Origin: a virus
Taxonomy: Duplodnaviria > Caudoviricetes
DNA length: 64,000 bases
Virus record (IMG/VR): IMGVR_UViG_2925514151_000008
Coordinates: 8,203-72,202 of that record
Direction: 5' to 3' (one strand)
Shown: positions 37,590 through 61,546 of the stretch, in pieces
How the letters are laid out: every line of letters starts with the position of its first letter
Numbering within the stretch: position 1 is the stretch's first letter
The notes under the pieces: model-generated
Told to the model about the DNA's origin: nothing
Database searches by the model: none
The model's input: the letters and a program-made list of their open reading frames with translations, nothing else
Made by a program: the position numbers and the translations under genes

Positions 37590-38390
37590 ATGAGACTGAT
37601 TTACACACTAACTGGACTGAATAACCCCTTACTCCCTGTGTACTCACAAACAGCGGCAGAGAAAGCGATCTCAGAACTATCCCCATCAGTATGGACACCA
37701 GTGAAGACAGAGTTTCTAAAAATGGGGTCTGGTGCAAAAGTAGTAGCTATCTCTAACCGATTAGATGGCGGACTTTTCAAGTCACTGGAGACCCTCGAGC
37801 CATCCACAAAGCTGAATGGTTCTGTTTTGCAGGGGCTTAATTTCTCCGGTGCATCCGGCATGGCTGGTGATACGGCGGTGGTTATGGACGCAAACATCAA
37901 TACTTTTGCATTCATCTATCAGCTGCCAGGTGGGGCGCTTCCGGCTACGCCACAGGACAGAGCGGTTATCGCAACCCAGGAAACAACCCCTCATGGCGTC
38001 GGCATTCGTACAACGTCAGCAGGTTCATTCCCGATTTTTCTGAATGGAGGGATCGAGGCCGATCTGGCATTTACTCCTAACAATATGGGGCAATCTGTAT
38101 TCTGCGCTGTAGTTATGTGCTCTAACAAGGCTGCAGGAACCTATGCAGTTGCATACCAGCGGTCAGATCAGTCTGCCGTGACCAGCCGACAAGTTACAGG
38201 CTATACAATCCCAGCGTATAGCCCGTCTCAAAAAATGAGTATTGGCGGAGCAGGCAATGGTTCAGTGTCTCCGTTAACATCCGTTTTGTCAGAATGTTTG
38301 GTTTTCCCCGGCAAATATGCATATGGGACCGGCACACTGGATGTCATCATGGCATATCTGATGGAGAGGATTGGAAAAATCACGGCCTAG
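37590..38390 (+). CDS. Beta-rich hypothetical protein (possibly LamG/ConA-like) after the tailspike
   Basis: 266 aa, GAGG RBS, beta-strand pattern; fold is an inference. Confidence 0.65.
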   Translation: MRLIYTLTGLNNPLLPVYSQTAAEKAISELSPSVWTPVKTEFLKMGSGAKVVAISNRLDGGLFKSLETLEPSTKLNGSVLQGLNFSGASGMAGDTAVVMDANINTFAFIYQLPGGALPATPQDRAVIATQETTPHGVGIRTTSAGSFPIFLNGGIEADLAFTPNNMGQSVFCAVVMCSNKAAGTYAVAYQRSDQSAVTSRQVTGYTIPAYSPSQKMSIGGAGNGSVSPLTSVLSECLVFPGKYAYGTGTLDVIMAYLMERIGKITA

Positions 38391-38409
38391 AATTTGCCGA
38401 ATGCATCCG

Positions 38410-38583
38410 AGTCGGTCCGCAGCGATGGAGCAGGGGAGAGTCGGCGGACGCCGCCGGGTAATGTCCACTGAGGTTGTGGAGCGGTGCCGCAGAATGCTGG
38501 AGAACGGCGCTACCAGGCAGCAGGTAGCCGATGTGATAGGAGTGGGAGTGAAGACGATTTATAAATATTTTCCAGCCGGTTAA
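38410..38583 (+). pseudogene. C-terminal remnant of a serine DNA invertase (Pin/Gin-like HTH)
   Basis: EQGRVGGRRRVM...RQQVADVIGVGVKTIYKYFP with no catalytic domain. Confidence 0.8.
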
Positions 38584-38783: not shown

Positions 38784-38825
38784 TTGATCTGTCGCTTTGC
38801 TAAAACTACTGTATATAAAAACAGT
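38784..38825 (+). promoter_or_regulatory. SOS promoter with LexA box (umuD promoter)
   Basis: TTGATC 38784-38789, 17 bp, TACTGT 38807-38812 (sulA-like layout); CTGTATATAAAAACAG 38809-38824. Confidence 0.9.
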
Positions 38826-40734
38826 GTGCGCCGGGAGACCGGTAGAGATCAAGGGGTGAAAGTCCCCGACCATTGAAGGACCAGCAATCCACAAGGTCCC
38901 CGAGTCATGCGTTGCATACCGCGAGGTATGGGGCGAAGCGTTGACAGGGGTGTTGACAGGCCAGCCATTGAGCCACGAAATCTATATTAAATTACCGGGT
39001 GCCGACGTTGTACTGTTAACGGAAGGCAACATCATAGGGTGCAATACTGCGAGTGCCACATGGACCCGGCGGGGTCTGAGACCCTGGCATGTCAATACGA
39101 TCTCTACGCGGGAACCGGGAGATCTCCCCTCTGACCATCTGCCAGTGTCGGAGATGGCCCGCACCGGGAAGACGAGGAGTCATAGCCGGTGATGTACGGA
39201 GAGGAGAAGTCGGACTCGCTCATAGTAGCGGCGAAGCAGGCGAACAACCCGAAAGGAGCGGAGTCAGTGGAGCGAAGGAGCGGGGCCAAGGGGAACGCGG
39301 AACAGCCACACATGCGCCGGACACAGAGCCGGGAAAGCATGTCACAGAGGCTGTCACGCGTGCGGGAAGCTGCGAAGCAGCGGAAGAAAGAACGGTTTAC
39401 AGCATTGTTCCACCTGCTGACAGTCGAAGCACTGGAAGCCGCATTCCTCTCCCTGAGCAGGAAAGCGGCCGCCGGAGTGGATGGCATCAGGTGGATGGAC
39501 TACGCCGGAAACATGAAGAACAACATAACAGATCTGCACCGGAGGCTACATCAGGGCAGCTACAGGGCGCAGCCCGGCAGGCGTCACTACATCCCAAAAG
39601 CGGATGGAAAACAACGCCCGCTCGGCATCGCCTCGCTGGAGGACAAGATCGTCCAGTATGCGCTGGTGAAAATCCTGAACGCAGTCTATGAAAACGACTT
39701 TATGGGGTTCTCATACGGGTTCAGACCCGGGCGAAGCCAGCACGATGCACTGGACGCACTGGCCACAGGGCTGGTACGCACTAACGTAAACTGGGTACTG
39801 GATGCCGACATCAGTCAGTTCTTTGACAGGGTGAGCCACGAATGGCTGATCAGGTTCACAGAGCATCGGATCGGCGACCGGAGGGTAATCAGGCTCATAC
39901 GTAAGTGGCTCACAGCCGGGACGTCGGAGGAGGGTCAATGGCGAGCAACGGAGGAAGGCACCCCACAGGGTGCGGTCATCTCACCGCTGCTGGCAAACAT
40001 ATACCTCCACTACGTCTTCGATCTGTGGGCGCATCAGTGGCGACGTCGCTATGCCACAGGCAATGTGGTAATGGTCAGATACGCCGATGACATCGTCATC
40101 GGGTTCGACAAACGATACGATGCCCGGCGCTTCCGTATAGCCATGCAGCGCAGACTGAGGGAGTTCGGACTCACGGTTCACCCGGAGAAAACCCGTCTGA
40201 TGGAGTTCGGCCGCTTCGCTGCCGAAAACCGTGCCATCAGGGGAAAAGGCAAACCAGAAACGTTCAACTTCCTCGGGTTCACGCACATCAGCGGGAAAGA
40301 TCGCAACGGCAGGTTCATGCTGATACGAAAGACCCGCCGGGATCGGATGACGGCAACTCTGAAAGCCATCAAAGACGGTCTGCGAAGGCGCTGGCATTAC
40401 TCAATCCCCGAACAGGGAAAATGGCTCAGGAGAGTGGTTCAGGGATACCTGAACTATCACTCGGTACCGGGCAACTTCCCCACCATGCAGAAGTTCAGGA
40501 CACACGTAACAAACCTCTGGCGCCGGGCGCTCAGGCGCAGGAGCCAGAAGGATGATACGACCTGGACGAAAGCAAACAAACTGGCAGCCGCATGGCTACC
40601 AAGGGTTCGGGTTCTTCATCCATGGCCTGTGGAGCGGTTCACCGCCAGACACCCGAGGCAGGAGCCCGGTGCGTAAATCGCGCACGCCGGGATCTGTGCG
40701 GGGGGTATCCGGTAACGGGTATCCCTACCGCGAC
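38826..40734 (+). mobile_element. Complete group II intron (probably bacterial class E)
   Basis: 5' GTGCG at 38826; DV GAGCCCGGTGCG...CACGCCGGGATC 40662-40694; DVI with bulged A 40727; 3' CGAC 40734; removal restores TACTGTATATAAAAACAGT|A. Confidence 0.93.
39189..40676 (+). CDS. ltrA: Group II intron RT/maturase, no HNH domain
   Basis: [37 protein letters not shown]; stop codon falls in the DV loop. Confidence 0.95.
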
Positions 40735-40755
40735 ATTAATCTGAGCGAGTCAATT

Positions 40756-41175
40756 ATGCAGTTTTACACACCCGTTGAGTTACGTGAGATCATGCTGATC
40801 CCGTTGTACAGTGACCTTGTGCAATGTGGTTTTCCAAGCCCCGCACAGGATTACGTTGAGCAACGCATAGACCTGAATGAGTTACTAATCAATCATCCCA
40901 GTGCGACGTATTTTGTCAAAGCCGCCGGCGACAGCATGAAAGACGCCGGCATAGGGGAAGGGGATCTTCTGGTTGTGGATAGCTCAAGGACAGCAGTTCA
41001 TGGCGATATCGTTATTGCTGCTGTGGATGGGGAATTTACCGTTAAGAAGCTGCAGCTGCATCCGCGGGTTCAGCTTAACCCAATGAACTCTGCATATTCG
41101 CCGATAGTCGTGGGTAGCGAGGACACTCTCGACGTGTTCGGGGTGGTTACGTACATCATTAAATCAGCTGGCTAA
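40756..41175 (+). CDS. umuD: UmuD-like Pol V subunit
   Basis: [10 protein letters not shown] cleavage site, GDSM, FTVKKL; ATG 40756, 139 aa. Confidence 0.95.
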
Positions 41176-41176
41176 G

Positions 41177-42442
41177 ATGTTTGCGCTTTGTGATGTGAAT
41201 TCATTTTATGCATCGTGCGAGACCGTATTTCGTCCTGACCTGAAGGGGCGGCCGGTGGTCGTTCTGTCAAACAACGACGGCTGTGTGATCGCCCGTTCGC
41301 AAGAGGCGAAGCCCTTCGTCAAAATGGGCGAGCCTTATTTCAAGCAAAAGGACATGTTTCGCCGGCACGGTATTATCGCGTTTAGCAGCAACTATGAGCT
41401 TTATGCCGATATGTCCAACCGAGTGATGACAACTCTGGAGGAACTCTCTCCACGCTGCGAAATTTACAGTATTGATGAGGCATTTTGCGATCTGACTGGT
41501 GTTCGTAACTGTCGCGATCTTACCGATTTTGGCAGGGAAATTCGTGAGACGGTTCTGCGCAGGACGCACCTCACGGTCGGCGTCGGCATAGCCCAGACTA
41601 AAACCCTGGCAAAACTGGCCAATCATGCTGCGAAACAGTGGCAGCGACAGACCGGAGGAGTGGTGGATCTGTCTAATCTTGAAAGGCAGAGGAAGTTGAT
41701 GGCTTTGCTGCCGGTGGATGAGGTCTGGGGAGTTGGCCGCCGCATAAGTAAAAAACTGGAGGCCATGGGCATCAAAACGGTGCTTCAGCTGGCGGATACC
41801 GATATCCGTTTTATCCGGAAGCATTTTAACGTCGTGCTGGAAAGAACAGTGCGGGAACTGCGTGGTGAACCCTGTCTTGGGCTGGAAGAATTTGCGCCGG
41901 TAAAGCAGGAAATCGTTTGCAGCCGTTCGTTCGGCGGTCGTATCACGGAATACCATGAAATGAGGCAGGCTATATGTTCATACGCATCGCGCGCTGCGGA
42001 GAAACTCCGTGGCGAACATCAGTATTGCAGATTTATTTCCGCTTTTGTCAAAACCAGCCCCTTTGCGCTGAATGAACCGTACTACGGAAACAGTGCATCG
42101 GTAAAATTGCTTACCCCAACCCAGGATAGTCGGGACATAATCACTGCGGCGACAAAATGCCTCGACGCAATCTGGCGAGACGGGCATCGCTATCAGAAAG
42201 CAGGCGTGATGCTTGGGGATTTCTACAGTCAAGGCGTAGCGCAGCTCAACCTCTTCGATGATAACGCACCACGGAAGAACAGCGAAAAGCTCATGGAAGT
42301 ACTCGATCATCTCAATGCAAAGGATGGCAGGGGGACGCTGTATTTTGCAGGGCAGGGGATCCAGACAGCCTGGCGGATGAAGCGAGAAATGCTATCCCCG
42401 CGCTATACTACGAGATTCTGTGACCTGCTCAGAGTCAGGTGA
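41177..42442 (+). CDS. umuC: UmuC-like Y-family polymerase
   Basis: DVNSFYASCE, YSIDEAF, QLNLF clamp motif, LSPRYTT. Confidence 0.96.
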   Translation: MFALCDVNSFYASCETVFRPDLKGRPVVVLSNNDGCVIARSQEAKPFVKMGEPYFKQKDMFRRHGIIAFSSNYELYADMSNRVMTTLEELSPRCEIYSIDEAFCDLTGVRNCRDLTDFGREIRETVLRRTHLTVGVGIAQTKTLAKLANHAAKQWQRQTGGVVDLSNLERQRKLMALLPVDEVWGVGRRISKKLEAMGIKTVLQLADTDIRFIRKHFNVVLERTVRELRGEPCLGLEEFAPVKQEIVCSRSFGGRITEYHEMRQAICSYASRAAEKLRGEHQYCRFISAFVKTSPFALNEPYYGNSASVKLLTPTQDSRDIITAATKCLDAIWRDGHRYQKAGVMLGDFYSQGVAQLNLFDDNAPRKNSEKLMEVLDHLNAKDGRGTLYFAGQGIQTAWRMKREMLSPRYTTRFCDLLRVR

Positions 42443-42567: not shown

Positions 42568-43557
42568 TTAGGCCTTTTTTAAGTACTCTCGCTGAATATT
42601 ATTCGTAAGTGCAATTCTATTTATCTCATTTGGGGTAAAAACCAAATTAACAAAGCCCGCTTGCGCAGCGTGTAACCTACCAGTACTTTCTAATTTCCCC
42701 TGTGATTTTAACTCATGTTCTAATTCATGGATGAGCCGTACCAATTCTTTACCCCTAGAGGTGAGTGGTGCCATAAAAGATGGCTGTCTATCACGATCAT
42801 ACCATTCAATCATACATTCAGAAAAATCTACATCAGCTATATGTTGGTGCACGATGAACTTTATATACTCGAACAAAAAACTTTGTTCTGAATCACCGAC
42901 TCCGATAGCAAAAGGTAAATTTTGATTATCCATTTCAATTTCTGCTATTCCTAATGCCATATCCATGCCAAAATATAAAGATCGTCCGGCATTAGTTAGT
43001 CCAGTACAGAAAAGATTGAAGTATGAGACAGGAAATGAAGCATTGTTACTTTCAGATTTAATCAAATAGTCGAGGATATCTTCGACTGACATGATGTCTT
43101 GATCTAAAATCGCAAATCCTTCAAAGAGTTTTTTAGCACTGGTAGATTGCAAGACATTTGATTTAGGTATGGTAATACCTTTTGCATCAGTTGTCTTGGA
43201 AACTCTTAATGCATGGCGAACATCTTGCCAATAACTTAACTTTGTTTCTGGGTTGTGAATAATAATAAGCACAGGTAATGGGAATATTTCCCAGTAAAAT
43301 CGATGCTTCTCTTCCGGGTGGAAAATCCAACATCCATTACTTTCCTTAAAAAAGGACAGCCCTGATTTTATTTGAACGGCTATTATCCTTCCCGTAGCAA
43401 AACCCTCTGGATTAACATACTCGATCTGGCCATCAATTCCAACGTCAGCCATCGGAGTTTCACGCCAAATCTGGCCAATCTTGGCCATTGCTTCCGCGAC
43501 GGCATTTACACCCAATCTTTCCTGAGAATTAGTCTGGTTATATTTTGGGAAATTCAT
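42568..43557 (-). CDS. DUF4365 (PD-(D/E)XK) nuclease-domain moron
   Basis: WRE...DVGIDGQIE...IAVQIKS...FYWE..PLPV; AT-rich. Confidence 0.82.
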   Translation of the reverse strand: MNFPKYNQTNSQERLGVNAVAEAMAKIGQIWRETPMADVGIDGQIEYVNPEGFATGRIIAVQIKSGLSFFKESNGCWIFHPEEKHRFYWEIFPLPVLIIIHNPETKLSYWQDVRHALRVSKTTDAKGITIPKSNVLQSTSAKKLFEGFAILDQDIMSVEDILDYLIKSESNNASFPVSYFNLFCTGLTNAGRSLYFGMDMALGIAEIEMDNQNLPFAIGVGDSEQSFLFEYIKFIVHQHIADVDFSECMIEWYDRDRQPSFMAPLTSRGKELVRLIHELEHELKSQGKLESTGRLHAAQAGFVNLVFTPNEINRIALTNNIQREYLKKA

Positions 43558-43846
43558 TTTTTCCTCAATCGCATGACACTGGTAACATTATCTTCAGAAT
43601 CTGGCACAAAATTTCGCCAGAGATTTAAGTTCAGGTCGGTAGTCCATTGTTGATTTTTAACAGGTTTCTACTTAACCAGAGAAAACAATGCAAACAAACC
43701 GATACTGTCTATTTTCGAGTATTCGAAAATCATCTCGTAGTTATTGACTAATTATTTCCCCTGTGATTTTGTAACTTTTTGGGAGCACTGTAAAGTCATA
43801 TCAGACGAAGATTGTCTATTTTTGGCTCATTCCGACGTTATCAAAG

Positions 43847-44524
43847 CTATAGGCTTTTGATAGCCTCAATCAATTCCGGCCCCTGGTTTTTCACGTTACC
43901 CACGGCACGCGATACCGGGTGCCAGATGAAATGGTCGGCGGATACTGCTCCGTCTCCAGCAATTTCAACTGCCTTCGCCCCAGTGACATCCTTCCTCATC
44001 CATTCCCGGGCGGCTTCAGGCGCCAGGACCAGCGGCCGACGGTCATGAATATCGACCAGCCCGTGGTCAGCAGCTGCAGTCACTATCAAAAATCCTTCGG
44101 CTTCGTCTCCGCGTTCAAATGGTGTGCTTCCGATAGCAGCCATGAAAATCGGCTGGCCATCAGCACGCTGGATAAAATAGAACTGCTTCTTGTCGTCTTC
44201 CTTTTTCCATTCAAACCAGCCGTCTGCAAAACAAATTGCTCTCCCATATTGCCATAGAGGCTTAAACATTCTGCTTGCCGCCGCGGTTTCTACGCGTGCG
44301 TTAATGAGCGCTGGTTTATCCCACCACCCCGGCCTGTAACCCCAGTGAACCGGATCAAGGTGCAGTTGTTCATCACGTTCGCTCAGGAGCAAAACTTTTG
44401 TCCCTGGCGCCACGTTGTACCGGCCGATTGGTTCGGGGTCATAGGCGATATCACGCTCAGCTTCTTCGGCAAGGAAAGCTAGGTATTCTTCACGTGTCTG
44501 TGATTGAGCAAAGCGTCCGCACAT
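43847..44524 (-). CDS. SOS response-associated peptidase (SRAP/YedK family)
   Basis: MCGRF, RYNVAP, INARVET, IHDRRP, VGNVKNQG. Confidence 0.93.
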   Translation of the reverse strand: MCGRFAQSQTREEYLAFLAEEAERDIAYDPEPIGRYNVAPGTKVLLLSERDEQLHLDPVHWGYRPGWWDKPALINARVETAAASRMFKPLWQYGRAICFADGWFEWKKEDDKKQFYFIQRADGQPIFMAAIGSTPFERGDEAEGFLIVTAAADHGLVDIHDRRPLVLAPEAAREWMRKDVTGAKAVEIAGDGAVSADHFIWHPVSRAVGNVKNQGPELIEAIKSL

Positions 44525-45917: not shown

Positions 45918-47732
45918 ATGGGACATTATGGTAGTTCACCGAAAAATCTTAACTCAGTGCCTTCGACCGATAGCGAGCCCTGCATGGAAAGTACAGAAAG
46001 CAGTAACCCCTGTAGTAAATTGACTGACGACTTCGAACATGCGGTCGTGCATGTCGCTGTGGTTGTACCACCAAGCTCTACATCTGAGCGGTCTCCTCTA
46101 CGTTTGCTGTTTGCATCTGTCTGGTTGCTGGCATCAGGAAGGCAAGCTCCTTCAAGACCTCCCAAGCCTTACATGAAAAAATTTAGCAAAGAAGGCGCTA
46201 TAGCGGTCGACCGTATAGTCATGACCGCAGAAGAGGCCATCCAGTGGTATCGAAGTGCATCGGAAGAACTTTGTACACCATCTCCCCGTCATGGTTTCCG
46301 GGCGAATTCTGACGACGAACCCCTCTCAGTTGGCAGGCTAAGCGACTTTCCAAGTTGGCCTGTACTGGGCATACCCATGGAAAGCGAAGACATCGCGCTG
46401 AAATCTGAGCGTTCTACACTCCCCTTCCGTAACCTTGGCATTATCAGGTATTCACGTCGAATTTCAGACAGTCAGGAATGGCCGAGCTTCCTTGACACAG
46501 CTGGACAAAGCAAGCAGTGCCAGGAAGCCTTCCAATTCCTAGAGCACCACATGTACGTCGATTTTAGGGAATATCCTGAATATTTGGGTGGGATGGTACT
46601 CGCTGTCCCTGATTGCGACGTTCATTCCGTCCGACAGTTCGTTGAGCCCAAAGAGGACGGTTCCGAATCGTTGTACTTCCATGTGAGGCCCCACCCAGGC
46701 CGTAAACTCCAAGGTCTAAGCTTGACCTCAATGGAAGGACAGGAAGGGATGCTCACCTCCTTCGATACAGTTACGGTACCGGAAGATGGCTTGGTTGTGA
46801 TTGAAAGACCGTCTTCCATCCACGGCTCCGGTCTTGTCCTTACACATACGGAACGAGGGGTCTTACTGCAAACGCCCATGCGACAGTTCCTTCGACAAAT
46901 GAACATGAGGATTGACGTGATCGAGCGACGCGTCAAGGTTACTGCCCCAGAGACAGATAAAAAGAAGAGCCCAGTCAATGAGTACTTCACTGAAAAAAAA
47001 ACCTTTGCGTCCTCACAAACATTGGGTGAAGCACCGAACACGACTGACGCCTTCCAGCGTTTGCTAGACGCGAAAAACGAGCGTCTCCTTAATTACAGCG
47101 CTCAATTATATGATCAGACGTGGTTTGCGGCTGACCAGCGCAAGGAAGCGCTCGAGCACATCAGGAAAAAACTTAAGCATGCTCACTCAAGCATCTTCAT
47201 CGCTGATCCCTACTTCAGCGCAAACCAAATTTCCCAATACCTATTTGCTATTGAGCGAGACGAGATCAAGATACAAATCCTTACCTCAGGCAGTGCTTTC
47301 AAACAGATCAAAGAAGCGGAAGCAAGTCCCGAAGCCGATAGTGAGGCGGCGCTAGACGCACACCAGACAATGCTGCAAAACCTGGATATATTCAAAGCCA
47401 GCCACAGAAACAGCATTGAAATCAAAGTTGCCAATACAGAAAATAGCCTCTTTCATGATCGATTCATCGCGGTCGATGGTCGTGTATGGATGATAGGTAG
47501 TTCTCTGAACTCTATCGGTATACGGCCAACGCTGACCATGCGCATACCCCATGGCGAAAAAATCCTCACCCACCTCATGGACCTTTATAATAAGGCTACC
47601 CCTTTGAAAGACTTAAAAGTCCTGAAAGGAGGACCCAAGAAGCAATGCGCGAATTACGGGCGCGGAATGGTGGACGCGAAAGAGGCGCAGGACGAGGAAC
47701 CGCGCGGCGCGAAGGACGTTAATAATGAGTAA
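45918..47732 (+). CDS. VPA1262-like protein with C-terminal PLD-like domain
   Basis: IADPYF and FHDRFIAVDGRVWMIGSSLN (HxR-x4-D...GS.N variant). Confidence 0.72.
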   Translation: MGHYGSSPKNLNSVPSTDSEPCMESTESSNPCSKLTDDFEHAVVHVAVVVPPSSTSERSPLRLLFASVWLLASGRQAPSRPPKPYMKKFSKEGAIAVDRIVMTAEEAIQWYRSASEELCTPSPRHGFRANSDDEPLSVGRLSDFPSWPVLGIPMESEDIALKSERSTLPFRNLGIIRYSRRISDSQEWPSFLDTAGQSKQCQEAFQFLEHHMYVDFREYPEYLGGMVLAVPDCDVHSVRQFVEPKEDGSESLYFHVRPHPGRKLQGLSLTSMEGQEGMLTSFDTVTVPEDGLVVIERPSSIHGSGLVLTHTERGVLLQTPMRQFLRQMNMRIDVIERRVKVTAPETDKKKSPVNEYFTEKKTFASSQTLGEAPNTTDAFQRLLDAKNERLLNYSAQLYDQTWFAADQRKEALEHIRKKLKHAHSSIFIADPYFSANQISQYLFAIERDEIKIQILTSGSAFKQIKEAEASPEADSEAALDAHQTMLQNLDIFKASHRNSIEIKVANTENSLFHDRFIAVDGRVWMIGSSLNSIGIRPTLTMRIPHGEKILTHLMDLYNKATPLKDLKVLKGGPKKQCANYGRGMVDAKEAQDEEPRGAKDVNNE

Positions 47733-48360
47733 ATTATCGTCCCGGATAAATGTCAGTACGACCGAGTCGGTGGTAGACATAAAATATACCCCGAAGCTAC
47801 TCATACCTTGCGAGGCGTCCTACCAGGTCGAATCCAGTCATCGTTTCCCATCTTTTGATGCCATCAGAGCCCGTAAAGATGCTCTGAATGTACGGTTAGT
47901 CGAAGAATTTGAAACAGCAATTAGTACTGCGCAACAGGTGTGGATAATTGACAAGCATTTATTTTCTGCAGATGGTCAGGAACCCGACCATAGTATACGA
48001 ATTCAGAAAGTTGTGGATTGGTTTTGGACAGACCATATTGAAACAGTAAAGATTTTAACTGGTTATCATGATTCAAAGAAAAAAATCATGGATGATTTCG
48101 AGATCTTAAAGCAGTTAGTAACAGAAAATCGTGCCAAACTTGCCCCCCCCATGACAATCGAGGTCTCATTTAACCTCAGTAACGCCAACTGCATTCACGA
48201 TCGCTTTGCTATTATCGATAACGAATTATGGCATTTTGGCGCAACTGTAGGCGGTTTTCATCGGGATGTAAATGCCGTTAGTAGAGGCTGGAATGCTGAT
48301 GCTCATGATGCAGTGCAGTTTTTTGATACAGTTTGGAAGATGGCCAACGAGAAAAAATAG
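47725..48360 (+). CDS. Stand-alone PLD-like domain protein
   Basis: WIIDKHL and IHDRFAIIDNELWHFGATVGG; 8-nt overlap with upstream gene. Confidence 0.72.
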   Translation: MSKLSSRINVSTTESVVDIKYTPKLLIPCEASYQVESSHRFPSFDAIRARKDALNVRLVEEFETAISTAQQVWIIDKHLFSADGQEPDHSIRIQKVVDWFWTDHIETVKILTGYHDSKKKIMDDFEILKQLVTENRAKLAPPMTIEVSFNLSNANCIHDRFAIIDNELWHFGATVGGFHRDVNAVSRGWNADAHDAVQFFDTVWKMANEKK

Positions 48361-48362
48361 TC

Positions 48363-50282
48363 ATGAACAAAGAATGGCAATTGCCGCCCACTTATGAATC
48401 GGAAAAGCAGAAATCGTACACAATCGCCGAGTCGTTGATTGAAGACTTCGCAGAAGGTAGCTTCGCATCTCCCGATGCATTGATCACGTCTGTGACAGAG
48501 TACTTCTGCGCTCAGGATGATGCAGAAGATGCTCTTAAGAGGTTTACCGCCCACCTAAGCGGTTCCCACGAGGACTTCGATGCGTCGGACCATCCGAAAA
48601 TTCAGGCGGCCTTGGTAATTGGAATTGTAACGGTATGGGCCTCTTCAGAAACCGAAAACCGGTATACAGCCTTCAAGGCTCTCGTCCGAAACTCATGGTG
48701 GGTTGAGCATTTGTGGACGAAAGTGGCACTGGTTGTAGCTCTAAAAAATGATGTTTTCAAGGAAACACTCTTAAATTTGGCCGAACAATATTTCGTCGAT
48801 GCTGAAAAAAATCTGCTTCATGAAGACGTAGTTGATCCATCCTATCCAATCACCCTCGATGCAATTTGGTATGGACACACCTGGGAAAGTCGGGTCGATA
48901 ATTCCAGTTGGTCATGGATTGAATTACTGGCGAAGCTCGCTCCCGACAAACTATTAAAATGGATGAGTGCAACAAAAAATCTAGTCTTGATCAATCGAGT
49001 ACTCGAAAGCCCGGAGTTTTACCGTAACTACGATCTGTGGGAACAAATCACCCTCGGATCTTCACCGAGTTTCCAAAGCGATGGTTCATGGAATGGTGCC
49101 CTATTGCTTCCCTGCCTACTCAGGCACGGAAGTACAAAAATCATCCACCTTGCCAATGGCCGCGAAGATGATCCATCTGTGCTAGAGCAGCGCGTCAGGT
49201 CATTGCTCGCTTGTTTCGTTGCTACTGTCGCTAAAAGATCAGATTTCGAGGGTCTGTTCAAGCGATGGGGTACATGGCTCACTCGCCAACACCTTAACTT
49301 CTCTGATAACAGTTCGGATCAAAAACGACCTCTAAGCAGCCAAGATATATTATTGGCATTAGCCGAAAAACTCACACAGCCCTTTTCCCCAACCATTTCC
49401 GACCAATTGAATTTTTCGTGGGAGCAATGGGTTTACCAATCCATGCTGGCACTTTTACATTCGAACTACCCCGATAAGTTTGCGAAACCAGACGTCAGTG
49501 CCTTCATCGAAGAATGGAACTTGACACCTACCGAGTGGAACTCCTCTAAAGGTAAGTCGCTTCGAAGTCATGTTAGTCAATTTCATGCCAATCAGCCTAA
49601 CAACTATGCTTGCCGGGTGCTCGGGTATTCCATCGCCTTGAGCGAAGACTTCACCTGTCACTGGCTGAGTATGTGGAACTCTAGCGTTGCGCTGAGAGAA
49701 ATCCTCGAATTCCATCCCATTGATAGGATTTCCAAAGAATGGGAACCTTCGGATGCTTCAGGACTGATGCGTACATTGGTTGACGTAGGCCTAGGAATTC
49801 TAATCTGTACTGCAGACGTACAAGAAACTCTCAATCCCGAAATACTTAAGAAGTCCGCCGCGCTATTTCAAGCGCTGTGGGAGGCTACCACTGAGATGTT
49901 AAGCATTGACTTCTATGGTGAAGACTTCTGGCCAATCATGCAGCAGTACCTAGTCATTTTCCGGCTACGGTGGACAGTTGAAGCGAAGAATGCGAATGAA
50001 GATCATTACAGCACTTGGCTGGATCAGGCCGCCTACCCAACGTCACTGGAAACATTGGCCTTAGTCTCTAGCAATCCCTGTTCACTCATAAGACTGCTTC
50101 CCCTGCTTGTGCAAAACCATATTCCTAAAGAAGACTTAAAGGTCTTGCTCAGCCAGGCCGGAATTGACTTAGCTTCTCTCGCATCGAGTGCAGCCAGATA
50201 CCAGAATGGGCCTGAGAAGAAATTCAAGATATATCCTCGTCACGTCAACTTGATTGAAGAATTAGCTAAGGTCAGCAAATGA
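48363..50282 (+). CDS. Large Trp/Leu-rich helical hypothetical protein
   Basis: ~640 aa ORF starting 2 nt after the previous stop. Confidence 0.8.
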   Translation: MNKEWQLPPTYESEKQKSYTIAESLIEDFAEGSFASPDALITSVTEYFCAQDDAEDALKRFTAHLSGSHEDFDASDHPKIQAALVIGIVTVWASSETENRYTAFKALVRNSWWVEHLWTKVALVVALKNDVFKETLLNLAEQYFVDAEKNLLHEDVVDPSYPITLDAIWYGHTWESRVDNSSWSWIELLAKLAPDKLLKWMSATKNLVLINRVLESPEFYRNYDLWEQITLGSSPSFQSDGSWNGALLLPCLLRHGSTKIIHLANGREDDPSVLEQRVRSLLACFVATVAKRSDFEGLFKRWGTWLTRQHLNFSDNSSDQKRPLSSQDILLALAEKLTQPFSPTISDQLNFSWEQWVYQSMLALLHSNYPDKFAKPDVSAFIEEWNLTPTEWNSSKGKSLRSHVSQFHANQPNNYACRVLGYSIALSEDFTCHWLSMWNSSVALREILEFHPIDRISKEWEPSDASGLMRTLVDVGLGILICTADVQETLNPEILKKSAALFQALWEATTEMLSIDFYGEDFWPIMQQYLVIFRLRWTVEAKNANEDHYSTWLDQAAYPTSLETLALVSSNPCSLIRLLPLLVQNHIPKEDLKVLLSQAGIDLASLASSAARYQNGPEKKFKIYPRHVNLIEELAKVSK

Positions 50283-50765
50283 TATCCGGGGTCGATCACA
50301 CCTGATTTTCTGACTGCATCCGACCGACTCCTTTACTGACCCTGACGGGGCTGCAATGAAATCACTGACCCTGCATGAAATGAATATCAACGGTTGACAA
50401 GAGTATTATTGTAGTTGCGTCAGTTAGTGATTCAGCATTGCAATCATCCCGCGGGCGTGGGTTTTGTGTGGGTTTTGTGTGGGTTTTGTGATCGTTTTCT
50501 GTATCAGTCGTCGTTCACTGTGGGGTCAATAGGCCCGGCATCAGCGGAAAGGCCTGAATCATCGCGGCCGGTTGTCGGCGTAGCGGCGATAACTTCATCC
50601 TGCTGCGCCTGAGCCGGGCCTGCTGCTGCCGTCGCGTAGGTACCGGAGGCTGCAGGATCGACAGCGCCTGCGGCCGGGTCGGCATTGCCTGCGGCGGGGC
50701 CAATGTTACCGCCAACTGGTGGCTGATTGTCTTTACGCAGGCGGGTAGCTGCACTTTTCCCCGCT

Positions 50766-51236
50766 TCAAATATTTTCGCACAGACAGTATGGCCTGCCGC
50801 TGCTGATGCGCTGCCACGCATCAAGGGAGGTCTTGAAATCGCCGCTCTTGTCGCCTAACATCTGAACTAGGCCAGCGCCCAGCTCATCACGACTAAACGT
50901 AGGGGGGAGTTGCGTAGCGTGGGATTGAGTACCAACCTCGCCCTTTGCATCTGGCCTGTCATTCTCCCAGCCCGTCAGCAACCATGTCTTCCGTTTCCCG
51001 TTTTCATCGAGCGACAATACCGCCGTTACGCCATCATGGTGGATACGCACGGTTTTCTTGGCCGGGACATTCTTAACTTCGGTACCCAGCGCCACAGCGC
51101 GAAGCGCACGGGCGACGACGCCCGGATCACGCTTGATACCAATGTGCTCAAGACCATATTGGCGATTGCCGTAGACAAAATGCACGTCAGCGCTACCGCC
51201 GTACCACACGAGGTCAGGTCGCAGATTTTTTGCCAC
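50766..51236 (-). pseudogene. Fragment with a barnase/colicin-E5-like (PBECR) domain of polyvalent proteins
   Basis: VHFVYGN..YGLEHI...AVLSL...KTWLLTGWE; GC-rich, ragged ends. Confidence 0.55.
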
Positions 51237-51269
51237 ATCCCGTCATAGGCAGCTCTACCGGTACCGAAC

Positions 51270-51755
51270 ATCTATAACCAGTGGCATGCGGACAAAGAAG
51301 CACAGCTGACCTCTCCACCTCGAAAAACGCCCGCACTGGCGAAGCGGATCGCATTCGTCAGCTGGTGGCCGACGCCGAAAGTGATGATGCCGAGATGGCC
51401 AGCGCAGCACAGGAAGAACTCGACAAGATGTCGTCGGACGAACTGTGGTGCTGAAGTCGAATTTCTCCGTCTATGATGATCTGAAGCAAAACTCATCGAC
51501 CGGGGCATCCCGGAGAAGGAGATCGCCTCCATCCACGACGCAAAGACCGACGACCAGAAGACCGAACTGTTTGCGAAGGTCAACGCCGGTACCATTCGCG
51601 TACCGCTGGGAGCCACCCAGAAAATGGGCGCTGGCATGAATGCGCAGGAGCGCCTTGTGGCGCTTCATCACCTCGATACCCGTGGTTTCTGTCCGACCTC
51701 GAACAGTGCGAAGGCCCCATCATCCGGCAGGGCAACACTCTTTATGAGCGCGACC
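51270..51755 (+). pseudogene. Frameshifted SNF2 helicase C-terminal fragment (DarB-like)
   Basis: Across frames: FSVYDDLK..LIDRGIPEKEIASIHDAK...LFAKVNAG.IRV..G.TQKMGAGMNAQERLVALHHLD...SDLEQ.EG.IIRQGN. Confidence 0.8.
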
Positions 51756-52393
51756 GCCGCCTGATACTCCTCCGGAGAGAGGATATCATTCATCTCGGCG
51801 ATTTCCTTTGCCCAGCCGCTGGTGGCCGTGCCATCCGTGCGGGCAAACGCTCCGGGATGTCGCCCCAGCCTACGTATTTGGCGAGCACGACCTGTTCGTC
51901 GGCCGTCGCCTGCCTGTTGCCGAATCTCCAGCTCTTTCAGTAGTCGGATGGCGGCAACGTTATCGCGGTACTTGGCCTTTTTCCCGCCCTGACCGATTGT
52001 CGCCGGGGCGATGGTGAAGAGGCTGTCCGGTTTTTCCTGCGCAGTTACGCCTGATGCTGGTCGGCTTCCTCGTCCTCGTCGTACAGCGGCATCCCCATCA
52101 CCTCGCTGAGTGCCGCCCCGCTGCGCTGCGGCTCCGCGTCCTGCTGGTCCTTCAGGCTCTGTTCCTCGGGCGGAAACAGGTACTTCTCGCGGGTCATCTC
52201 CCACGCCTCGTGTTCCCGATACCCGCTGTTCTCCAACTGGTCCATTTCGTCCGCTGTCCGCTTCGCCGCGTCCTGAAGCGCGGTCTCCAACGTTCCCGCT
52301 TTCTTCAGCTCCCGATACTTCGTTGGCTGGAATTCCGCCCAGTGTTGCCGGGCCTGATTCACCCAGTTTTGCAGCATTACCATTTGATACCAC
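51756..52393 (-). pseudogene. Fragment of DarB-like region preceding the methylase domain
   Basis: GGKKAKYRDNVAAIRLLKELE, (shifted) LAKYVGWG, W.KE...LSPEEYQAA. Confidence 0.75.
52045..52383 (-). CDS. TnpV-like small protein nested in another frame of the DarB-like fragment
   Basis: QARQHWAEFQPTKYRELKKAGTLE...EAWEMTREKYLFPPEE; GAGG RBS. Confidence 0.55.
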   Translation of the reverse strand: MVMLQNWVNQARQHWAEFQPTKYRELKKAGTLETALQDAAKRTADEMDQLENSGYREHEAWEMTREKYLFPPEEQSLKDQQDAEPQRSGAALSEVMGMPLYDEDEEADQHQA

Positions 52394-52754
52394 CTCGTTG
52401 TTGAATTAAGCCATCATGTCATTGAAAGCTGCAGTCAGGCAGTTGTAATGACGGCTTATTTCAGAAGTTAAAGTTTTAACGACCATTCTGGCCCTATCAC
52501 TTGTTAAGTGCCGTCACCGACTGATTTCACGAACGGGAACCATAAAGAATTGTTGGTGTAGCCATACATAAAATGCCGCCAGTGATGTTCGGTATAACCT
52601 ATCACCATTACAGGATATACCATCATTGTTCGGAGTCATTCTGATGGTAATGTTTTTATGTTTATTGTCGATTTATAACGTTTTTATACTGGTCAGTTAC
52701 GACTTTCAGATAGAGTTTCCTTTTGCTCAGAACAGTGTTTCTGGTTAAATGTCA

Positions 52755-53156
52755 TTAATAACTTGAGCAATATACTGATGTGCCAACTTGATGACAGTTG
52801 GTTTGTACAGGTTTAGTTTGTACGGGGGTATTCTGCTGCATGATTTGACCAGCCGCTATCATTCTTTCCCCCATGCTCGTATCGTGATAAATATTGGATG
52901 CACCATACTGAACAACAAAACCGTTATTTAGTAACACTTGATAATCCGCTTTATCCCATGACCAGTCGGACATGAATCGATTCGAATAGGTTAACAGTTC
53001 AGCTGTACCTTGTGTTTGCACTCCATCAGGAGACCCCAGCTTGTCAATCACATCTGTACGGCTCATACCTTGTCTAATTTTAGAAAATTTCTCTCCCGTT
53101 ACACAGGAAGCTAGTACCAGAGTGACACAACACATTATGATAAAACGAATGAACAT
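52755..53156 (-). CDS. Lipoprotein, SmpA/OmlA-like
   Basis: Lipobox LASC; IRQGMSR.DV...LGSPD. Confidence 0.78.
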   Translation of the reverse strand: MFIRFIIMCCVTLVLASCVTGEKFSKIRQGMSRTDVIDKLGSPDGVQTQGTAELLTYSNRFMSDWSWDKADYQVLLNNGFVVQYGASNIYHDTSMGERMIAAGQIMQQNTPVQTKPVQTNCHQVGTSVYCSSY

Positions 53157-53251
53157 AACAGTTTCCTATTTATGGTTTTTAAAAAAATATGGCAGTAGTT
53201 TATTTAATTCGTTTACGTGCATCTTATGCTGCTTACCATTTTATGGGGGTG

Positions 53252-53608
53252 TTATTTTGTATTATTGGCATCTTTAAGTGTCTTCTTGAAGTAAGGGTGT
53301 ATTTTTATTGCAAGAAGCATTGATAGCGCTGGGGATAAAATACAGGCAATTAAACCAGTAAGTAAACCTGCACCCAAAAACATCATGACTCCGTGAGGGA
53401 ATCCTACGATACTAAAAACGATTAAGAAAGACCCTCCCCAGCGGCTTGCTCTCTCTATAAACCAATAAATGGCTATATTAATAGGTTTAAAAAATATTCT
53501 TGCGTAATCAGTACGGTAATGATCGGTTCCTAAACTGTACTCAGCAGGTAACATGAATCCGCGAAATAAAATATTCAAAAAAAACACTACAATACCAATA
53601 ATAAGCAT
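53252..53608 (-). CDS. Membrane protein
   Basis: 118 aa, about three hydrophobic segments. Confidence 0.65.
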   Translation of the reverse strand: MLIIGIVVFFLNILFRGFMLPAEYSLGTDHYRTDYARIFFKPINIAIYWFIERASRWGGSFLIVFSIVGFPHGVMMFLGAGLLTGLIACILSPALSMLLAIKIHPYFKKTLKDANNTK

Positions 53609-53712
53609 TTGTAACCTCTTCTATATCAATCTGTTAATTTTTAGTGGCTATTTAATCGTCTCGGATTTCTTCAGGACCGCGTACTTCGTCGACCAAGATC
53701 TCTCCCAATATT

Positions 53713-54582
53713 CTAGTAAAAAGTACTTGTCAGTGCCTCTCCTACGAATTTATCCCGCTGCCATAGAACCTGTTCCAGTAGTCGGGATCTTTCTCCGCTT
53801 TCTGCGCATGCCAGGGTATTGAGGAATATCGTTCTTTTAAGTGTTGCGCCCCCAGCGCCTGCCGCTCTAACTCGTGGACAGGAACTCCAAGCGCGTAGCA
53901 TTCCATCAGTAAAGGGCTGACCTTCACCTGTGCGGAAGGTTCGGGTTGCGAAGTCGTATCTGACATTATCTATCTCCGGCAGAGTGTTTTTCACTGAGCA
54001 CAATGATGTTCCTATCATTGAACTGATATTGTAAATATTATTTCCTGGGCGCCATTTTAATGGTGGAATTCCTAGCATATCTTCACCGTAGAGCTGGCGT
54101 TCATGCGGCTCGATATGTTCGGTGCCACCATGTTTGATCGCTGAAGACAGCATCGCCTCGGTACGTCTACGTATCGCGATATCAGATAGTCCTGCAGGAT
54201 CGCCAATAAATATTCGCCCGGTATTCACAGCATAATCAGCTACTGCCTGATATGCAGCGGAACCAAACTCTCCCTCCTTCAATTGACTGACATCAAACCA
54301 CACAACTTCTGGTTTACGGTAAATGTATATATTCACATCGTTTTTGATGATAACGCGAACAAGCTCAACACCATCAGGATTACAGTTATCATCTAAGCAT
54401 TCTTCTGTGAAGTTGATAGTTCCCCATGGGTATATCAAGTCAAATATACGTTGCAATGAGTGAATCCCTGTGGCTTTCGGATGCTGAAACAATGCACTCA
54501 TTGCCGATAATTCAATGATAAATTCAGCGGCAAATTCATATCGGTGGTAATCGGAATTTCTTATTTTATTTTTTGTCATCAT
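53713..54582 (-). CDS. Hypothetical protein
   Basis: 289-aa ORF co-oriented with upstream operon. Confidence 0.75.
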   Translation of the reverse strand: MMTKNKIRNSDYHRYEFAAEFIIELSAMSALFQHPKATGIHSLQRIFDLIYPWGTINFTEECLDDNCNPDGVELVRVIIKNDVNIYIYRKPEVVWFDVSQLKEGEFGSAAYQAVADYAVNTGRIFIGDPAGLSDIAIRRRTEAMLSSAIKHGGTEHIEPHERQLYGEDMLGIPPLKWRPGNNIYNISSMIGTSLCSVKNTLPEIDNVRYDFATRTFRTGEGQPFTDGMLRAWSSCPRVRAAGAGGATLKRTIFLNTLACAESGERSRLLEQVLWQRDKFVGEALTSTFY

Positions 54583-54624
54583 AGGTAAGTATTTAATCGA
54601 ATGATAAACTTTTTTATAAATTAA

Positions 54625-55629
54625 TCAGAATTTACCATTGCGGACGGCCTTATCACTTTGATGGATAAGAATAGTGTCATCTTCATTTGTAAAAACATTC
54701 TCTCTTTGTTTTTTACCTGATAAAAACCGTATGCTTTTTATTTTGTTTAGTATGACTGAACCAGTTAGTCCCTTTGTGTTTTCCTCATAGTATTTAAACC
54801 ATGGTAACTTATTATTTTTGTAATCTCTGCTGGTTATGGGGGGGCGGGGCATTGGATAACCTGTTAGTTTGTGCCAGTCAGATGCATTAATCATATGGAT
54901 AAAACAGCGTGAACTATGATTTGTATCCCACGCTGCAGGTCCATATATATCCTCTTTAATTTTCTGAGTGATTCGGCCACCAGCTCCCATTCCCATCAGA
55001 CAGTAAAGATCATTGTATTCTGGCTCCAGATAACTCTTGCATCGTTTCTTTCGTTTTGCCTCACGTTCTTCTCTTTCTCTTTTAGCCCTCTGAATAGCAT
55101 CATATACGGATGCTTTCATCGGCCAGGCAATAATCTGTAATCCACCAACTTCTGCAGACCCTGTGATTTGCTCTTCTACTGTATAACCTGATTGTAAAGG
55201 TACAGAGGTAAACTGCCGTACTGTACCCTGGCCGACATTAAAGCCATCCAGCCAATATTGACGTGATAAATCGATGAAATCTTGGGGGTGATGAGATAAT
55301 TCATTCTGCCATGATAACCCCGTAATGGCATTAATTTTTCCTGTAGCAATCTTCATAGCTATAGGATAATCACTGCTGAAGTTAATCCACATGGCCTCTG
55401 AATTATATATTGGCATGAGTACACCGCCTTTTTTGAGCATACAGGCGGGAATTTTTTCAGCGTAGTTATCTATATGAGCCAACTGGAACCTTCCAAGCCC
55501 GGCAGGTAATGGATATATGCGGTCATTGTCAGGTACACGTAATGTTCGCTGAAATGAGACTGTTCCAGAGGCCTTCGGATGGACTTCCGGAAATGAGATA
55601 ATCAACTGATTTTTATGAAGTTCAATCAC
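54625..55629 (-). CDS. Conserved-looking hypothetical protein (SFQRTLRVPD type)
   Basis: SFQRTLRVPD...LPAGLG, EAMWINF, WLDGF, VEEQITG..EVGGLQI, LPWF; AGGAG RBS. Confidence 0.8.
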   Translation of the reverse strand: MIELHKNQLIISFPEVHPKASGTVSFQRTLRVPDNDRIYPLPAGLGRFQLAHIDNYAEKIPACMLKKGGVLMPIYNSEAMWINFSSDYPIAMKIATGKINAITGLSWQNELSHHPQDFIDLSRQYWLDGFNVGQGTVRQFTSVPLQSGYTVEEQITGSAEVGGLQIIAWPMKASVYDAIQRAKREREEREAKRKKRCKSYLEPEYNDLYCLMGMGAGGRITQKIKEDIYGPAAWDTNHSSRCFIHMINASDWHKLTGYPMPRPPITSRDYKNNKLPWFKYYEENTKGLTGSVILNKIKSIRFLSGKKQRENVFTNEDDTILIHQSDKAVRNGKF

Positions 55630-55641
55630 AATTTTCTCCTT

Positions 55642-55992
55642 TTACCATTCACCATCTGTCACCTCACGAACGATACGCAATACAGCTGCTTCAGGCGCGT
55701 CTTTTAACTGTCTTAGCAACTGGGAAAAGAGCAGCGGACGTGAGCAGATAATTTCCTGTAAATCCGACGATATTTTCCCTGACATGGCCAGGACGACGTC
55801 AGGATCCAGTTGTAGCTCATGTGCAATTTTTTTCAGAGTAGCTTCTGAGGGAGGAGCGGTTTCTCCGCGTTCGATCTTGCTGAGATAAGCCGGTTCGATT
55901 CCTACACGCAGAGCAACCTGACGCAAAGAAAATGACTTGCTGTGTAAGCGTAGAAACTCACGCTGTTCTCTGAGTACGGTTCCTATGTTCAT
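55642..55992 (-). CDS. XRE-family HTH regulator
   Basis: SLRQVALRVGIEPAYLSKIERG. Confidence 0.88.
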   Translation of the reverse strand: MNIGTVLREQREFLRLHSKSFSLRQVALRVGIEPAYLSKIERGETAPPSEATLKKIAHELQLDPDVVLAMSGKISSDLQEIICSRPLLFSQLLRQLKDAPEAAVLRIVREVTDGEW

Positions 55993-56029
55993 GGGTGTGT
56001 ACTATATACTACACGCAACACACCATCAA
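55993..56029 (-). promoter_or_regulatory. Leaderless-type sigma70 promoter with overlapping inverted repeat
   Basis: Minus strand TTGATG-17-TATAGT, 8 nt, ATG; GTGTGTA...TACACGC dyad spans the -10. Confidence 0.6.
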
Positions 56030-56206
56030 TTATTAATTATGAATAAAATGTTCAGCGCGCTCACTTCAGGGCTGTTGTAATCCATCTTGGTGATTGAACA
56101 CATAGCTACCGCGCAACCGATTGTAAGGCTGTAGCAATAGGTGATGGATGTGAATAGTTTACCAGGTAGGGAGGTAACATCCCTGACAGCAGATGAAAAT
56201 CACTAA

Positions 56207-56269
56207 TTCCAACTATAGTTGGAAGACAAGGATATCATTGCTCGATGAAATTTCCAACAATTGTTAGAG
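56207..56269. promoter_or_regulatory. Paired palindromic operators
   Basis: Perfect TTCCAACTATAGTTGGAA 56207-56224; imperfect TTCCAACAATTGTTAGAG 56252-56269. Confidence 0.65.
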
Positions 56270-56285
56270 ATTGTTGGGAGGAACA

Positions 56286-56540
56286 TTGAATATCGCAATA
56301 GCTTTCGGAGGTGTACTGCGGCAGTTACGTAAGAACGCAGGATTAACACAAGAGCAACTGGGTTTTGAGGCTGAACTGGAACGTAATTACATCAGTATGC
56401 TTGAACTTGGACAACGTCAACCAACGTTGGCAACTGTATTCAAGCTTGCCTCTCCATTGAATGTTACTCCTTCGAAAATGGTGTCAATGGTAGAAGTTGA
56501 ATCCCTGATTTCTCCAGTAGAGAAAAAAAGTAAGAGTTAA
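56286..56540 (+). CDS. XRE HTH, controller(C)-protein-like
   Basis: FGGVLRQLR..AGLTQEQL...LERNYISMLE.G.RQPTL; GGAGG then TTG 56286. Confidence 0.82.
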   Translation: MNIAIAFGGVLRQLRKNAGLTQEQLGFEAELERNYISMLELGQRQPTLATVFKLASPLNVTPSKMVSMVEVESLISPVEKKSKS

Positions 56541-56737
56541 ACCTCTCATTTCACTGTTTCATGCGTTAAAGGTTTGCCGTATTTGATGCTTTTTTGCCAT
56601 TCCAGCTACCGTGAAAATGCATTGGGACAGTGGGGGCAACCAGATGTGGCTCGGGGTTGAGACGTCCCCGCCCGTTTTGAACAGTGGGGACAAAGCGGAC
56701 GGGATATCTAAAATACAACCAATCTTGTCCTCACCTG

Positions 56738-57060
56738 TCAGACATTGCGGCCCTCTCCGAATGACTGGAGTTCCTTGACTATCTGGCGCAGGCGGTAAAC
56801 GTCCACCACATCATGCATACCCCGGGTAATCTCGACGGTGAGCGCCAGCGACGCCCCAACGTCAAGCATTTCATCCGGGGATGTGTCGGCAGTGTCCGCC
56901 GCCTGTTCCGGCGTTTTTCCCATACAGACCAGAAGCGCGGCCATTCTGTCGGCGCGAAGTTCGGCATCATCAAAAAGGCGCTTAGCCTGCGCGGCGTCAG
57001 CGGTTTTCATCGTCTGAATCAGCAGGTCAGGGATTCGGGTATATCCGGCGTTACGCATGA
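56738..57060 (-). CDS. Hypothetical satellite protein
   Basis: MRNAGYTRIPDLL...; overlaps Icd-like stop; 3' end paralogous to 60886-61119. Confidence 0.65.
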
Positions 57061-57983: not shown

Positions 57984-58018
57984 GCTTTTTTATTTTCTGA
58001 AAACGGGTTTATTCTGTT

Positions 58019-61119: not shown

Positions 61120-61218
61120 CGCCACTCCTTTAAATTTTTTATAATAAGTGTATTTTATTTTTACCAAGAGCATGTGAGTGAAAATAAAAACTATCTGTCT
61201 GTTGGTAAGGGATTTTTA

Positions 61219-61416: not shown

Positions 61417-61495
61417 GGTTAAGTTCCACTGAATACCGGGTTACTCCGGCGATAAGTGGATATTGGCACAGTTTATTTTGGTTGATAAGACATAA

Positions 61496-61544: not shown

Positions 61545-61546
61545 AT

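Follow-up and report, generated by a model that had tools for sequence, protein, structure and literature searches.

The locus described here raises the question of what follows, for a mobile intron and for its host, when the intron comes to lie inside the operator of a DNA damage-response operon. The window, by which we mean the whole 64,000-nucleotide (nt) stretch analysed (positions 8,203 to 72,202 of the 72-kb provirus record IMGVR_UViG_2925514151_000008, assigned to Caudoviricetes), was inspected in sequence between positions 38500 and 42700, where a group II intron stands directly ahead of umuDC, the genes of the error-prone DNA polymerase V (Pol V). The most economical reading, which we consider moderately probable, is that the SOS response drives expression of the intron from a 5' exon of 6-7 nt. 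On this reading, retrohoming would have brought a mobile, endonuclease-less group II intron into the LexA operator of umuDC in sense orientation, with the promoter and 19 of the 20 operator bases left upstream of it. Both the intron RNA and the reverse transcriptase would then be expressed from that promoter, presumably upon LexA cleavage, through a primary transcript whose 6-7 nt 5' exon is roughly intron-binding site 1 (IBS1). Once spliced, this transcript would again carry the ordinary umuD leader of 28 nt, and unspliced read-through RNA would still expose the umuD ribosome site. Because the promoter lies upstream of the intron, it can reach umuDC only through transcription of the intron.

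The insertion can be read from an allele that lacks it. On the Klebsiella plasmid pBio30 (locus L084 in our numbering), sequences 93.6% and 91.6% identical to the two flanks in the window abut between 71465 and 71466 and form an uninterrupted 20-mer, TACTGTATATAAAAACAGT followed by A and then by the umuD leader, indicating that the insertion is exact. The intron splits the 20-base SOS box between base 19 and base 20 with no target duplication. Its placement in sense orientation between a LexA-overlapped promoter and umuD, which had been proposed in an earlier sequence-only reading of this DNA, is thereby borne out by the sequence and by the empty allele. The Klebsiella plasmid p2 (L085) carries the intron-occupied form, and in 13 of the 5426 complete Escherichia coli genomes the intron occupies this very point of the species' own umuDC, which lies on the chromosome between hlyE and dsbB; the 19 box bases retained in the window are identical to the 19 bases 5' of the intron at this E. 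coli locus (L001). The box is palindromic, and its minus strand (38807-38817) offers a second potential target, TATATACAGT followed by A, which is unoccupied.

The placement in a LexA box is a recurrent one. Copies of the intron with at least 99% identity were present in 3517 plasmid records. Pooling of the close-copy loci gave 47 distinct 5' flanks after six flank clusters had been dropped, namely five of distant relatives (L026, L038, L041, L064 and L074) and one of intron-after-intron junctions. All 47 were LexA-box-like, with CTG-N10-CAG ending 1 nt 5' of the intron in 45 and the remaining two one base off. By position, TACTGT at -19 to -14 was kept in 42-47 of the 47 flanks, the bases at -12 to -10 (candidate IBS2) in 43-47 and ACAGT at -5 to -1 in 45-47. 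Furthermore, an exact match to the first 42 bases of the intron occurred 54 times in 53 viral contigs, with 33 flank combinations, 30 of which fit CTG-N10-CAGT and three of which were one base off; an exact search of viral contigs with the 5'-flank pattern gave no match.

With respect to the promoter, the arrangement TTGATC-17 bp-TACTGT, which the sequence-only reading had pointed out, is indeed present upstream of the intron (38784-38812, with the spacer at 38790-38806), and it is also found at the E. coli chromosomal umuDC and in the intron-free pBio30 allele. A -35-like hexamer, defined as starting with TTG and matching at four or more of six positions (TTGAnn), was present 16-18 bp 5' of the TACTGT of the box in 24 of the 47 distinct flanks, the distance being exactly 17 bp in 23, and control spacers of 4-6, 8-10, 12-14 and 19-20 bp gave such a hexamer in 1, 1, 0 and 0 flanks, respectively. 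Since it is kept at these two umuDC loci and recurs in 24 of the 47 flanks, the promoter pair is more than a chance occurrence. From this geometry, transcription is predicted to start near 38819-38820, about 7 nt after TACTGT, and the 5' exon is predicted to be 6-7 nt long, roughly IBS1 alone; the recurrence of the geometry leads to the same prediction for about half of the sites. The candidate IBS2 precedes the predicted start, in agreement with the earlier proposal that IBS2 lies upstream of the first transcribed base. The SOS box of the window overlaps the -10 hexamer of the predicted promoter. In the passages of PMC8072944 that bear on this point, the LexA boxes of Salmonella genes with LexA-dependent bistable expression overlap known start sites, and the Discussion of that paper lists sulA, umuDC and dinP as tightly LexA-repressed.

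Coordinates of the intron, its exon-binding elements and the umuDC operon in the window (EBS, exon-binding site; IBS, intron-binding site; IEP, intron-encoded protein; aa, amino acids)
Feature	Positions	Strand	Basis or remark
-35-like hexamer TTGATC of the umuDC promoter	38784-38789	+	Sequence; same hexamer and spacing in L001 and L084
-10-like hexamer TACTGT, left half of the LexA box	38807-38812	+	3/6 to consensus; key A2 and T6 present
LexA (SOS) box, 19/20 bases, TACTGTATATAAAAACAGT	38807-38825	+	CTG-N10-CAG pattern; 20th base A at 40735
Candidate IBS2 ATATA	38813-38817	+	Complementary to UAUAU in the internal loop 38983-38987
Predicted transcribed 5' exon, 7 nt (6 if start is 38820)	38819-38825	+	Predicted from -10 plus about 7 nt
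IBS1 AACAGT	38820-38825	+	Complementary to EBS1; covaries in relatives
Group II intron, 1909 nt	38826-40734	+	GTGCG...CGCGAC boundaries; exact empty site
Ribozyme domain I region, Rfam RF02005 (group-II-D1D4-6)	38859-39084	+	Covariance-model match
Candidate EBS2 loop CUAUAU	38982-38987	+	Unpaired in the Rfam alignment; the C is G in other close copies
EBS1 ACUGUU, hairpin loop	39012-39017	+	Rfam alignment; covaries with targets in relatives
IEP, reverse transcriptase/maturase, 495 aa	39189-40676	+	Pfam, NCBIfam
Domain V-like hairpin, two-base bulge	40658-40697	+	RNA fold
Domain VI hairpin, bulged UA, candidate branch A 40727	40698-40731	+	RNA fold
3' exon leader with umuD ribosome-binding region, 21 nt	40735-40755	+	Matches the intron-free allele in alignment; no pairing in the centroid fold
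umuD, 139 aa	40756-41175	+	Peptidase_S24 E 4.5e-29; NF007621 166.5 bits (cut-off 110)
umuC, 421 aa	41177-42442	+	IMS, IMS_C, DUF4113; NF002955 866.6 bits (cut-off 431)

The anatomy of the element is that of a complete group II intron encoding its own reverse transcriptase. The boundaries follow the 5' GUGYG and 3' AY rule, with GTGCG at 38826 and CGCGAC up to 40734, and the 3' exon opens with ATTAATC at 40735. The covariance model RF02005 matched over its full length (1-225) with 184.2 bits (gathering score 49; E 6.5e-54). The minimum free energy fold of 40655-40740 contained the domain V-like and domain VI hairpins with their bulges (z -3.72), the fold being the basis of both assignments; no Rfam family for domain V/VI matched on its own up to an E of 1. 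The IEP scored 376.2 bits with TIGR04416 (cut-off 300) and matched RVT_1 at E 4.6e-47. Because RVT_1 was its sole Pfam match even at E up to 5, the IEP carries no HNH or endonuclease domain, as the sequence-only reading had maintained.

The target is recognised by base-pairing. In addition to the EBS1-IBS1 pairing, U39011, immediately 5' of EBS1, could pair with the +1 A. The EBS1 loop and the target covary among relatives at eight loci in six lineages (L024/25, L026, L030, L036, L041 and L081/82). In L024 and L025, whose IEPs have 69% identity, the loop is UACUGU and the insertion lies one base later, after CAGTA, and in L026, L030, L036 and L041 each EBS1 pairs with its own differing target. 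A target recognised as a hairpin, as by IIC-like introns, was ruled out because the EBS1 register shifts with the insertion point. The relatives with 69% IEP identity (L023-L025, from beta-proteobacterial and Gemmatimonadales metagenome-assembled genomes and from Pelomonas) lie after the CAGTA of CTG-N10-CAG boxes, and the open reading frame (ORF) downstream of L025 resembles, as judged by eye, the N-terminus of an integron integrase. Two bases set the window copy apart, namely C at 38982, within the candidate EBS2 loop, and A at 39043; G stands at both positions in the other aligned close copies and in 158 of 158 and 155 of 155 reads, respectively, of the RNA run X22 described below.

A more distant relative, with 55% IEP identity, was found in two Solirubrobacterales metagenome-assembled genomes (L081/L139, L082/L140 and L141), where all three copies lie 2 nt after GAAC-N4-GTTCG. 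Their upstream flanks differ, and the EBS1 loop UGUGAA pairs with UUCGCA. The actinobacterial LexA consensus is given as tCGAAC-N4-GNNCGa in the relevant part of PMC9380542, and the motif fits this consensus, indicating an actinobacterial-type LexA box. It is conceivable, as a tentative extension, that this clade of endonuclease-less introns has tuned its exon-binding loops to the LexA operator of the host, apparently more than once; that it parks a few bases downstream of the starts of SOS promoters and is made in the SOS response with a 5' exon amounting to hardly more than IBS1; that its full target, made up of IBS2, IBS1 and the left half-site, is offered only on DNA freed by LexA; and that the genes downstream need read-through or splicing. 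This extension, about which we are more doubtful than confident, covers the CTG-N10-CAG boxes of enterobacteria and of other Proteobacteria-type sequences as well as the GAAC-N4-GTTCG boxes of Solirubrobacterales, with Pol V, DinI-like, SbmC-like, bacteriocin-like, phage and integrase-like genes as the SOS genes downstream.

Thirty sites with both flanks allowed the orientation to be compared. The -35-like hexamer was present on the sense side only at 13, on the antisense side only at two (L108 and L138), on both at one (L089) and, at this spacing, on neither at 14. Several of the 14 sites without the hexamer had a co-oriented ORF 17-46 nt downstream (sbmC-like, DinI-like, umuD-like or bacteriocin-like), and the genes downstream of other sites included a tyrosine recombinase, an integron-integrase-like gene and a short (79-85 aa) phage ORF. 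From the sense majority of the -35 hexamers and the co-oriented ORFs, sense placement in the leaders of SOS genes is therefore the rule. This bears on the possibility that the landing is passive, the LexA box serving as a conserved, multi-copy and harmless intergenic match to the EBS, with the RNA and the IEP coming mainly from read-through and from copies in trans, the SOS promoter being minor and umuDC a passenger. We regard such a passive landing as unlikely, since the sense orientation dominates though the palindromic box offers targets on both strands, since 24 of the 47 sites share the -35 geometry, and since the relative with 55% IEP identity occupies a differing, actinobacterial-type LexA box in three of three copies, which points to selection for the operator itself and not for one sequence. 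It would nevertheless account for the two-flank sites at which the -35 geometry is absent (14 of 30) or antisense only (two). The same applies to the viral contigs L096 and L121, in which two introns stand in tandem, the second directly after the first; occupation thus does not protect a box from a further hit, as plain sequence recognition predicts, and the +1 A is not obligatory. In another viral contig (L095), a umuD-like gene lies behind two LexA-box-like motifs, the intron being in the upstream one and the second motif in the 3' exon.

RNA reads gave a partial view of expression. Among the public RNA runs, none contained this umuDC locus, and the best word share, 0.85, equals the share of the intron in the query. 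X22 is one stranded raw-read run with the same species label, from another strain that has the intron at other boxes, and its condition is unspecified. In this run, 3219 reads matched the intron query, and the full-bin depth was 63-278 in one mate orientation and 0-20 in the other, indicating sense RNA as in most stranded libraries. Only 22 reads cover the 5' exon (38818-38821), and at least 53 extend over the 3' junction; they reach three distinct 3' exons, all of which have an ATG and a Shine-Dalgarno-like stretch. The great excess of sense intron RNA over 5' exon in X22 fits an excised intron or very short 5' exons. Eight molecules of this run end at 38830, and 41 start at 40160, inside the IEP ORF, with the depth not raised after that point. 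Run X24 had no matching reads and X19 had four partial reads only; in X3, for which contigs only were available, an RNA contig gives way to sequencing adapter at 38814, 12 nt short of the intron.

Several observations weigh against SOS-driven expression of the intron from a short 5' exon. The promoter pair is weak, with 4/6 and 3/6 matches (7/12), and the promoter scan did not call it, and the insertion swaps the last base of the box from A to G. Of the 22 reads of X22 over the 5' exon, 16 continue upstream of the box, seven of them including the -35-like stretch of that locus itself; the transcription of the intron at those sites therefore does not come from the box promoter alone. Such upstream reads, together with abundant sense intron RNA under an unspecified condition, are what a passive landing would produce. 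Within the reads listed for X22 there was no pile of read starts in the 5' exon. Nor was there any joint, lariat or back-joint read among them, which is not evidence against splicing. The assignment of EBS2 and IBS2 is tentative, as the bases concerned are also under the constraint of the LexA consensus. The anatomy, the exactness of the insertion, the logic of the base-pairing and the recurrence of the geometry at many SOS promoters are established, and the start site, the control by LexA, the splicing of so short an exon and the effect on Pol V are each steps that we infer for this locus.

The consequence for Pol V was considered from the position of the intron in the operon. The intron interrupts the 5' untranslated region of umuD and not its reading frame, and umuD and umuC, 1 nt apart, are both full length by NCBIfam. 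A terminator scan gave no terminator-like site on the + strand of the intron. A promoter inside the intron that could serve umuDC, which would have spoken against the dependence on the native promoter, was looked for in the promoter scan, and none was convincing: the best + strand candidates matched 8 of 12 positions, and the one nearest to umuD cannot serve it because its -10 lies over the start codon. When the 3' junction of the unspliced RNA is folded, the Shine-Dalgarno sequence and the AUG of umuD are predicted to be unpaired in the centroid structure. Thus, with the intron in the untranslated region, no terminator-like site and an unpaired ribosome site, unspliced read-through RNA could be translated. 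The proposal in the sequence-only reading that splicing gates Pol V holds insofar as the native promoter must cross the 1.9-kb intron; the gating itself was overstated, given an intron in the untranslated region and an unmasked ribosome site. Gating by splicing is possible without being required, and attenuation or delay is as likely.

In a stronger form of the latter idea, the insertion would mainly lower or delay Pol V, the short exon splicing poorly and the 1.9 kb cutting transcripts through Rho, RNA decay or dead ends of lariat-3' exon. This would agree with the 363 nt of untranslated structured RNA that precede the IEP ORF, with the rarity of the occupied chromosomal umuDC (merely 13 of 5426 E. 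coli genomes), and with the larger number of 3'-junction than of 5'-exon reads in X22 (at least 53 versus 22), which is compatible with stalled intermediates. However, the same junction counts fit precursors with a short exon equally well, the + strand of the intron is without a terminator-like site, the predicted fold of the unspliced RNA leaves the umuD ribosome site accessible, and umuD and umuC are intact in the window. We therefore consider attenuation as the main effect to be improbable, and SOS-driven expression from a short 5' exon is retained as the working explanation.

The intron is of the Kl.pn.I5 / Se.ma.I1 kind (Klebsiella/Serratia, Zimmerly database), a name taken from the descriptions in papers and not from a comparison with the database entry. 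In the portions of the papers concerned with it, Kl.pn.I5 / Se.ma.I1 is, like the window intron, an element of Klebsiella plasmids and chromosomes that is present in multiple copies and currently mobile (PMC3522654, PMC6764390, PMC8269217, PMC6965571). These portions report a homing site inferred from positions -25 to +10 and saturated sites in K. pneumoniae MGH (PMC3522654), two new insertions of the intron during one outbreak (PMC8269217), and 11 versus 6 intron copies in related strains (PMC6965571). A 2026 paper describes an unnamed multi-copy intron with a 1485-bp coding sequence, copies of which adjoin lexA, dinP and dinI, and draws no connection to LexA (PMC13658459). The words LexA and SOS have no occurrence in the available text of PMC3522654, PMC6764390, PMC8269217 and PMC6965571, nor do umuD and promoter in that of PMC3522654. 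No publication linking group II introns to targeting of SOS boxes or LexA was found, subscription journals and supplements lying outside the search; as a hint only, one passage of a Marinobacter paper reports four group II intron reverse transcriptase genes as higher in biofilm beside a LexA-linked gene set. The operator targeting and its transcriptional consequence thus appear not to be in print within the literature searched, and the element is a catalogued intron whose target logic and promoter placement had gone unremarked.

The identical copies reported from other hosts deserve a separate remark. Streptomyces, Actinomadura, Microbacterium, Kitasatospora, Pedobacter, Flammeovirga, Arthrobacter and Eggerthellaceae were rejected as hosts of 100%-identical copies. 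These copies (L004, L005, L007, L009, L010, L011, L021, L022 and similar) lie on short contigs, mostly of about 2 kb, with enterobacterial-type flanks, and they are probably contaminating enterobacterial DNA in those assemblies.

Comparison with known systems helps in placing this target. Group IIC introns (class C in the relevant text of PMC3522654) and attC-targeting introns resemble the window intron in that they have no endonuclease domain and recur at an intergenic regulatory motif. They differ from it because the window target is read by a covarying EBS1-IBS1 pairing of 5-6 bp and a candidate EBS2, is an AT-rich operator without a T run, is associated with an Rfam D1D4-6 ribozyme and lies downstream of a promoter rather than a terminator. 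The hallmarks of group IIC, namely a terminator or attC hairpin on the 5' side, an IBS1 of 3-4 nt and the absence of EBS2, do not describe the window intron. For RmInt1 of Sinorhizobium meliloti, priming depends on the DNA strands of the replication fork, and the target is an insertion sequence, in contrast to the transcription-factor operator entered here; we know of no link between RmInt1 and a stress regulon. RmInt1 shares with the window intron an IEP without an endonuclease domain, according to a title cited in PMC3522654.

Integron integrases, lambdoid and 186-type prophages and colicin plasmids depend on LexA cleavage for their mobility or expression. Promoters of such SOS-controlled elements are themselves among the landing sites of this intron or its relatives, as seen for the intI-like gene of L025 and the bacteriocin-like gene of L011/L022, and short (79-85 aa) phage ORFs without an assigned function are the landing-site genes of L093, L099, L110, L114, L117 and L135. 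These elements evolved a LexA box of their own, whereas the window intron would acquire control by entering a box of the host and leaving the host gene behind it. Group II introns are known to limit the damage they cause by inserting into other mobile elements or downstream of terminators. Landing in the operator of a repressor, if it is confirmed, would be a differing strategy, in which the intron inherits a promoter that already responds to stress and meets one and the same target across many species, whether on a plasmid, a phage or a chromosome. A ribozyme would in addition come to stand between the SOS switch and the error-prone Pol V, an arrangement present in clinical Klebsiella and in the 13 of 5426 complete E. 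coli genomes mentioned above, where the intron could alter the speed or strength of damage-induced mutagenesis. In addition, the predicted 5' exon of 6-7 nt would provide a natural test of the minimal 5' exon of a group II intron in vivo.

As for the surroundings of the operon, the phage tail genes stop near 38.4 kb of the window, and a recombinase remnant (38371-38583) lies upstream of umuDC. Downstream, on the minus strand (42568-44524), there are genes for a DUF4365 protein and an SOS-response-associated peptidase (SRAP). A similar module of recombinase, hypothetical protein, umuDC and SRAP genes is found on plasmids such as p2, and the umuDC module may therefore be cargo rather than core prophage. 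Farther to the right (45918-62614) there are genes for a PLD-like and an LPD37 protein and for DUF927 and Toprim proteins. The DUF927 and Toprim proteins look like a primase of the kind carried by satellites or plasmids, and this right part of the window, judging from its gene content, may be a second element next to the prophage.

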